Positions 144 through 14,939 of a DNA stretch of 14,939 nt are shown one piece after another (position 1 is the stretch's first letter; every line of letters begins with the position of its first letter). This stretch comes from a phage. A program made the position numbers and the translations under genes. Location of the stretch: the sequence record PX306536.1. The stretch is one strand, 5' to 3'. Under the pieces are notes generated by a model. It saw only the letters and a list, made by a program, of their open reading frames with translations. It searched no databases and had not been told where the DNA came from.

Positions 144-173
144 TTGTAAGCGCGTTTAAAATCATGGTAAAAT
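144..173 (+). promoter_or_regulatory. Candidate sigma70-like early promoter for the left early operon (VIII-I)
   Basis: TTGTAA (144-149), 18-nt spacer, TAAAAT (168-173), about 60 nt upstream of the gene VIII ATG at 233. Sequence inspection only. Confidence 0.35.
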
Positions 174-232
174 AACCACTACCCCAAATTGCGCCCCTGC
201 AATTTGCTGACGGTTTAACGGAAGGCGGAAAC

Positions 233-13900: not shown

Positions 13901-14144
13901 TCAGCTTGCCAAGCCATTCAGCTTGCGTAACGCCAGCGGGCGTAAAACCGTTATCGGCAAACCGCAAATCAAAATGTTCGCTTACCACGCGGATAGCGCC
14001 CTTGACTTGATAAACAGCGGCAAGCGCGGTGCTGCCATACATAAGCGATGAAGCAAAAGGCGTTTGTCCAAAGTCGCCGGGAATGGACACAAAATAAAAT
14101 GCCTTCGGGCATTCAGGGCGGTTATTTTCGGTTTGCTTTTCCAT
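13860..14144 (-). CDS. XIX: ssDNA-binding protein P19, 94 aa
   Basis: Minus-strand ORF with RBS AAAGGTAAC upstream; second gene of the right early operon; 3' end overlaps XXXVII convergently. Confidence 0.75.
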
Positions 14145-14216: not shown

Positions 14217-14699
14217 TTAGGCTTCGGCCTTGGCCTTGGCCTTGGCGGCGGGCTTGGCTTCGCCAGCGGCTTCACCGGCAGCGGCAGGGGCAGGCAGCGC
14301 GGCCTTAACCTGATTGCGAAGCGCGGCCAGTTCATCCGATGCGGCGGGTTCAATCAGCGGCTTGACACCGTATTCATAACCAGTGTTGCCCTTTTCGGAA
14401 GGCTTGGCCCAAATTTCAACCGCAAAATCAACCGTGTTTTCACCATCCACGGCACCGGCAAGCAGGCTTTCCAGTACCTTCGGCAGAATCAGCGCACCGG
14501 AACGGAACACTTCACCAGTGGCGATATTCACGCCTTCAAATTCACCTTCAAACTTGATGAAGTCGCCAAAGGTGGATTGACCAACTTTCTTACCGCGAAC
14601 GCGGCCATAGATGGAAGCCAGCGCGGTATTTTCCTTGATGCTGTGCGGCTTCGGTTGTGCGCCAATGGTTTTCAGAGTCAGCTTGCTTACGATTTCCAT
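14217..14699 (-). CDS. XII: ssDNA-binding protein P12, 160 aa, with Ala/Lys-rich C-terminal tail
   Basis: 160-aa minus-strand ORF, first gene inside the right ITR; RBS AAAGGTAAC; tail AAKAKAKAEA encoded by a GGCCTT x3 repeat. Confidence 0.88.
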   Translation of the reverse strand: MEIVSKLTLKTIGAQPKPHSIKENTALASIYGRVRGKKVGQSTFGDFIKFEGEFEGVNIATGEVFRSGALILPKVLESLLAGAVDGENTVDFAVEIWAKPSEKGNTGYEYGVKPLIEPAASDELAALRNQVKAALPAPAAAGEAAGEAKPAAKAKAKAEA

Positions 14700-14768
14700 G
14701 ATAGTTACCTTTAAAGTTAAGTGGAAGTTATCGGCGGGGGTTTTGTGTTTGCCCTTTCGATGATTGAA

Positions 14769-14796
14769 ATTATACGCGCATTTTTAGGACGTGCAA
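14769..14796 (-). promoter_or_regulatory. Sigma70-like early promoter for the right early operon (XII-XIX)
   Basis: On the minus strand: TTGCAC (14791-14796), 16-nt spacer, consensus TATAAT (14769-14774), AT-rich upstream; about 70 nt upstream of the XII ATG. Confidence 0.6.
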
Positions 14797-14829
14797 TAGT
14801 TATGACGAAAATAAATCAAAATTTTATTC

Positions 14830-14939
14830 CTATCGCTTTTCCGTTTGTGATAGTTCGGGCCTATCGGATGCAGGGGGTATTGACAGACGGAAATAAAAAT
14901 GTTAGGGGCGCGGGTAGGTGGGGAGGGGCACGTATCCCC
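14830..14939. repeat. Right inverted terminal repeat (110 bp), genome terminus ending CCCC
   Basis: Exact reverse complement of positions 1-110. Confidence 0.95.

Follow-up and report, generated by a model that had tools for sequence, protein, structure and literature searches.

The unique non-coding stretch at the right end of this PRD1-like genome carries, on the minus strand, the element TTGCAC-16 nt-TATAAT, which is almost certainly the orthologue of the PRD1 right early promoter and would drive the operon of genes XII and XIX; from the sequence comparisons set out below we give this reading a probability of about 0.93. The right early promoter is already known, having been annotated in PRD1 since 1990, more than 30 years ago, and its presence in a close relative carries little weight as a discovery. 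Its practical interest is that it marks the early transcription start of the gene for the toxic P12 protein, which is relevant where orthogonal replication systems are built from cloned PRD1 replication genes.

The window, by which we mean the whole of sequence record PX306536.1 (14,939 bases), represents a PRD1-like alphatectivirus genome that is linear and complete. From end to end it aligns with PRD1, PR4, PR5, PR772 and L17, and with about 70 plasmid-dependent tectiviruses that were isolated recently, at 96–98% identity; it is approximately 97–98% identical to PRD1 and has the same sequence as none of the aligned relatives. The inverted terminal repeats (ITRs) at 1–110 and 14830–14939 are each 110 bp long and 100% complementary, and the right copy forms the replication-origin context outside the promoter. 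Linear replicons derived from PRD1 and flanked only by 110-bp ITRs replicate with PRD1 proteins, and because these ITRs alone suffice for replication the unique region is placed outside the origin. That region, 14700–14829, is exactly the unique non-coding stretch from the right ITR to the start codon of gene XII and is the only one at the right end.

Both genes of the right early operon lie on the minus strand. Gene XII (14217–14699) is a 160-amino-acid ORF with its ATG at 14699 and encodes the P12 ssDNA-binding protein; it comes first in the operon, is annotated as XII or ssDNA-binding protein in PRD1 and its relatives, and shares 98–100% amino-acid identity with most of these records. Gene XIX (P19; 13860–14144, 94 amino acids) follows as second gene, with the coordinates of gene XIX in PR5 and an equivalent in PRD1. 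We also noted a terminator-like hairpin, GAATGCCCGAAGGCATTT and then TATTTTGT, at 14114–14097 on the minus strand, within the first 50 nt of gene XIX and 3' of gene XII; this is a consensus match only and, if active, the hairpin could reduce expression of XIX relative to XII.

Architecture of the right early promoter

The core of the element consists of a -35 hexamer TTGCAC (14796–14791), a spacer of 16 nt (14790–14775) and a -10 hexamer TATAAT (14774–14769), all on the minus strand. The -10 hexamer matches the consensus at 6/6 positions, while the -35 hexamer keeps the TTG and matches TTGACA at 3/6. The -35 begins 34 nt inward of the right ITR boundary, and 69 nt separate the end of the -10 from the gene XII ATG. 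This arrangement could be compared directly with GenBank M30146.1 ('Bacteriophage PRD1 early protein genes XII and XIX'), in which a misc_feature named 'right early promoter' occupies record positions 145–172 and reads TTGCACGTCCTAAAAATGTGCGTATAAT (28 nt). The window element is identical to this feature at 27/28 nucleotides and has the same TTGCAC-16-TATAAT hexamers and spacing as the PRD1 right early promoter (Gerendasy and Ito 1990); the sole mismatch is in the spacer, where PRD1 has T and the window has C at 14778. The distance from the genome end is equal (145–172 and 144–171, respectively, the ITR of M30146.1 being written with one extra G), and the downstream ribosome-binding site (RBS) and genes XII and XIX are as in PRD1, although the two isolates differ, with about 97.5% identity overall. 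The location of the element between ITR and gene XII and its inward reading are thus a layout common to PRD1 and the window. Together with the conservation of the hexamers among relatives, the coordinates and the PRD1 annotation bear out the description in the earlier note of a minus-strand right early promoter in the unique region; its report of AT-rich sequence upstream also held, with 80% A+T in the 25 nt preceding the right -35.

This A+T-rich tract 5' of the -35 extends over 14797–14829 (minus strand) and may include a UP-like element at approximately 14819–14807. By eye, 8–9 of 11 positions match the UP consensus, and the T-run at about -57 to -45 is conserved; the tract may act as a UP element. 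UP-element promoters such as rrnB P1 are the textbook comparison. The Escherichia coli sigma-70 promoters of this type likewise have -35 and -10 hexamers separated by a spacer of 16–18 nt, and carry an A+T-rich tract from about -40 to -60; the T-run of the window resembles the distal UP subsite. In contrast to rrnB P1-type promoters, the -35 of the window is weak (3/6), and the sequence CATAACTA (14804–14797), which directly adjoins the -35, is unlike the proximal UP consensus.

PRD1 has early operons at either end of its genome and relies on the RNA polymerase of its host. In the window, after genome entry the host polymerase with its housekeeping sigma factor would bind TTGCAC and TATAAT, probably assisted by the A+T-rich upstream tract. 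From standard sigma-70 geometry the start is predicted 6–8 nt past the -10, at 14761–14763, and transcription would proceed leftward on the minus strand from near 14762. The M30146.1 record annotates no start site and its promoter feature is without an experimental qualifier; a full-text literature search, to which the original mapping papers were out of reach, returned no data on start site or promoter strength. The predicted transcript would begin with a leader of about 62 nt (14700–14760 on the minus strand) that includes the RBS AAGG at 14711–14708, corresponding in position to the RBS annotated in M30146.1 at 9–12 nt before the ATG, and would continue through gene XII (P12) to gene XIX (P19). 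A phage factor would be unnecessary for right early transcription. This layout recalls that of phi29-like protein-primed phages, which have linear genomes capped by terminal protein and promoters of the sigma-A/sigma-70 type near the ends that drive early replication genes; the sequences and proteins are unrelated to those of the window. In phi29 the early promoters are under the control of two proteins of the phage, p4 and p6; no such regulator is known for the system described here, nor was one found.

Statistical strength and conservation of the core element

A confounder in assigning promoters by sequence is the frequency with which hexamers of this quality arise by chance. Sites were scored by hexamers plus spacer with an approximate matrix, in which the consensus-base frequencies follow classical compilations and the remainder was split equally among the other bases. 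By this score the right site ranks 15th genome-wide on both strands, and about 10 sites scoring at least as high are expected per shuffled genome, which corresponds to approximately 0.04 per 130-nt stretch of one strand. The pattern TTG-N19-TATAAT occurs once in the window against an expectation of 0.28, and at least once in 51/200 shuffles. The position-weight score and the shuffles therefore rule out genome-wide significance of the core promoter, and by core sequence alone the right site exceeds chance only locally. A consensus promoter scan of the window did not list the site, because its -35 matches at only 3/6 positions and the threshold was 4/6.

These figures, and the weak -35, are what would be expected if the element were a chance consensus match without promoter function and transcription of gene XII began elsewhere, either in the unique region or in the ITR. 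The local context argues against this. The right site is the best sigma-70-like site in the right terminal 260 nt, where the runner-up scores 2.6 bits less, shares the -10 of the best site and is the only other one within 3.9 bits of it. The G+C-rich ITR yielded no promoter candidate above 6.3 bits. Given further that conserved hexamers enclose a variable spacer, and that the authors of the PRD1 record annotated exactly the same element, we regard a chance match as very improbable. Two other registers of the right -35 were rejected, ATTGCA (spacer of 17 nt) and TGCACG (spacer of 15 nt), with scores 2.6–4.6 bits lower.

Conservation was examined in an alignment of 18 right ends, comprising the window, PRD1, PR4, PR5, PR772, L17, nine recent isolates and three IMG/VR contigs; four of the 18 come from the divergent PRDobsidian/sepia/wine/aquamarine group, whose identity in the aligned stretch is about 77%. 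The -10 TATAAT is unchanged in 18/18 right ends, inside the invariant block GTATAATTT, and the -35 varies only at position 5 (A/G). Variable columns amount to 1/12 in the hexamers, 9/16 in the spacer, 14/33 in the upstream tract and 18/40 in the leader. The hexamers differ from the remaining unique non-coding region (49/118 variable columns) with a Fisher p of 0.029, a modest test since most relatives are 93–99% identical in this stretch and represent few independent lineages. With the exception of PRDhazel, each right end retrieved contains a single copy of the pattern TTGCRC-N16-TATAAT, and the 16-nt spacer length is kept in 17/18 relatives. In PRDhazel (L026) the A-run of the right promoter spacer is 1 nt shorter, giving 15 nt, and there is a C-to-T change immediately 5' of the -10; this spacer is either a real variant of suboptimal length or a homopolymer sequencing error.

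Conservation is not confined to the hexamers. The sequence CATAACTA and the T-run of the upstream tract are unchanged in the 18 right ends, the invariant block CATAACTATTGC continues past the -35 for 8 nt on its upstream side, and on the downstream side there are other invariant blocks (CATCGAAA, CGATA and ACTTAAC), a pattern that hexamer recognition alone does not explain. It could arise if these blocks owed their conservation chiefly to some other role of the DNA, for example as a packaging signal, a protein-binding site or part of an extended replication origin, with the likeness to a promoter being secondary. We consider this highly unlikely, as replicons flanked only by the 110-bp ITRs replicate, the left end is without these blocks, and a more distant relative keeps only the promoter-like arrangement at the aligned place.

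This relative was obtained from scans for distant homologues, of which the metagenome scan gave one contig, also present in IMG/VR, and the genome-collection scan gave one divergent contig (L032, CANRNG010000038.1; 14,932 bp), whose right end was compared. The P12 of L032 is 86% identical, and the DNA upstream of its gene is A+T-rich and mostly unalignable. At the place aligned with TTGCAC-16-TATAAT, after a shared AACTAT, the contig has TAGACA-16-TGtTAATAT, in which TAGACA matches the -35 consensus at 5/6 positions. Position and promoter-like character are therefore kept while the sequence turns over, as predicted for a functional promoter. The P12 homologue of L032 is located next to the contig end, the contig is as long as a tectivirus genome, and it has been binned in an 'uncultured Erysipelothrix sp.' MAG; it is probably a mis-binned divergent alphatectivirus-like phage, and would be the most distant relative available for comparison of the regulatory regions.

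The left early promoter candidate and the proposed asymmetry

At the left end of the window, too, a unique stretch separates the ITR from the first early gene. Here the candidate TTGTAA-18-TGgTAAAAT at 144–173 (plus strand) precedes the terminal-protein gene, whose ATG is at 233, and its -10 is extended by a TG one base upstream. It ranks first in the left terminal 260 nt, about 5 bits ahead of the next site, and it falls within the generic 'promoter region' (111–232) of the PRD1 record M22161.1. A promoter-like site is also present at the homologous place in the divergent obsidian clade. Thus, the left-hand analogue proposed in the earlier note does exist, and its assignment as a promoter is well supported by sequence. 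An alternative left -10, TAAAAT at 157–162, was discarded, having no usable -35 and a score of 6.2 bits. The left region of M22161.1 resembles the right end in having a sigma-70-like site with 9/12 hexamer matches at a similar distance from the ATG; it differs in sequence, in its 18-nt spacer, in its -10, which carries an extended TG but departs from the consensus, and in a less A+T-rich upstream tract, and the specific hexamers are unannotated in the record.

The left site had also been described as the weaker of the two, with the suggestion that the difference in promoter quality may set different expression levels for the two early operons. The scores do not agree with this. Left and right sites reach 10.9 and 10.7 bits, respectively, with 9/12 hexamer matches in each, and the left site has the better -35 as well as the extended -10 TG. 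The sole sequence feature favouring the right side is the A+T content of the upstream tract (80% versus 64% at the left), and in so far as relative strength can be predicted from sequence the core elements appear equal.

In PRDobsidian, sepia, canary and pistachio the proposed order is reversed. The left promoter of these phages is TTTACA-17-TATAAT, with 11/12 matches and 14.4 bits, and the right promoter is TTGCGC-16-TATAAT, such that the left looks better than the right. The near-consensus left site results from a 24-nt upstream deletion together with a 2-nt deletion in the spacer. The asymmetry as proposed thus finds no sequence support, and how the two early promoters compare in sequence quality varies across the alphatectiviruses.

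Invariant flanks, leader repeats and mosaic ends

The invariant sequence that flanks the -35 and occupies +1 to +8 raises a further question, namely whether the right early promoter is also regulated. In this case the sequence overlapping the -35, or an inverted repeat at the start of the leader, would serve as an operator or RNA element that shuts off or stabilizes early expression, with the two ends tuned differently. The invariant leader blocks CATCGAAA (14762–14755) and CGATA (14733–14729), both on the minus strand, could pair weakly through AUCG:CGAU at the 5' end of the predicted gene XII mRNA. This pairing is strong in the obsidian clade, where the counterpart hairpin of PRDobsidian combines AUCGAA:UUCGAU with CGGC:GCCG (-12.3 kcal/mol, z = -3.3), and the more A+T-rich right upstream tract would also fit ends that are tuned differently. 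In the window, however, the right-leader hairpin has -5.4 kcal/mol and is no better than shuffled sequence (z = 0.02), and we rejected it as a supported feature. RNAalifold gave no meaningful consensus structure for the gene XII leader (-0.7 kcal/mol), and an Rfam scan of the whole window matched no family.

The left leader adds a second candidate for such an element. At 185–206 (plus strand), about 5 nt past the predicted left start, there is a perfect 8-bp inverted repeat, CAAATTGC-gcccct-GCAATTTG, the stem of which is unchanged in all left ends examined; the whole left leader has a folding energy no better than shuffles (z = -0.35). The repeat could form a 5' stem-loop on the terminal-protein/polymerase mRNA or could be an operator. 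Set against regulation of this kind are the equal core scores of the two promoters, the reversal of the asymmetry in the obsidian clade, the fold of the window right leader and the fact that no regulator was identified. We therefore view added regulation as unlikely.

A broader version of this idea is that the blocks conserved beyond the hexamers (CATAACTA, +1 to +8, about +30 and the left 8-bp repeat) tune or time both early operons, as operators or mRNA-stabilizing 5' stem-loops, and that promoter modules are in addition exchanged between lineages by recombination, to which the mosaic ends of PRDwine and PRDaquamarine and the near-consensus left promoter of the obsidian clade would be traced. 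This is speculative and we would not expect it to hold; if true, the proportion of replication proteins to ssDNA-binding protein would be evolvable.

Two deposited genomes have ends of mixed character. PRDwine (L014) and PRDaquamarine (L015) combine a PRD1-like left unique region and promoter with an obsidian-like right unique region, and in their deposited records the inner approximately 45 nt of the two ITR copies differ from each other. This pattern points to recombination that broke within the ITR or beside it, or else to artefacts of assembly. The left unique region of the obsidian clade is without 24 nt that are found in the window (at about 124–147 in the alignment). Finally, GGAATAA occurs at both ends in the obsidian clade (PRDobsidian, L016, positions 1–45 and right end; L029), just past the ITR limit of the window; since this heptamer is common to both ends, the ITR of the obsidian clade is apparently about 7 nt longer.
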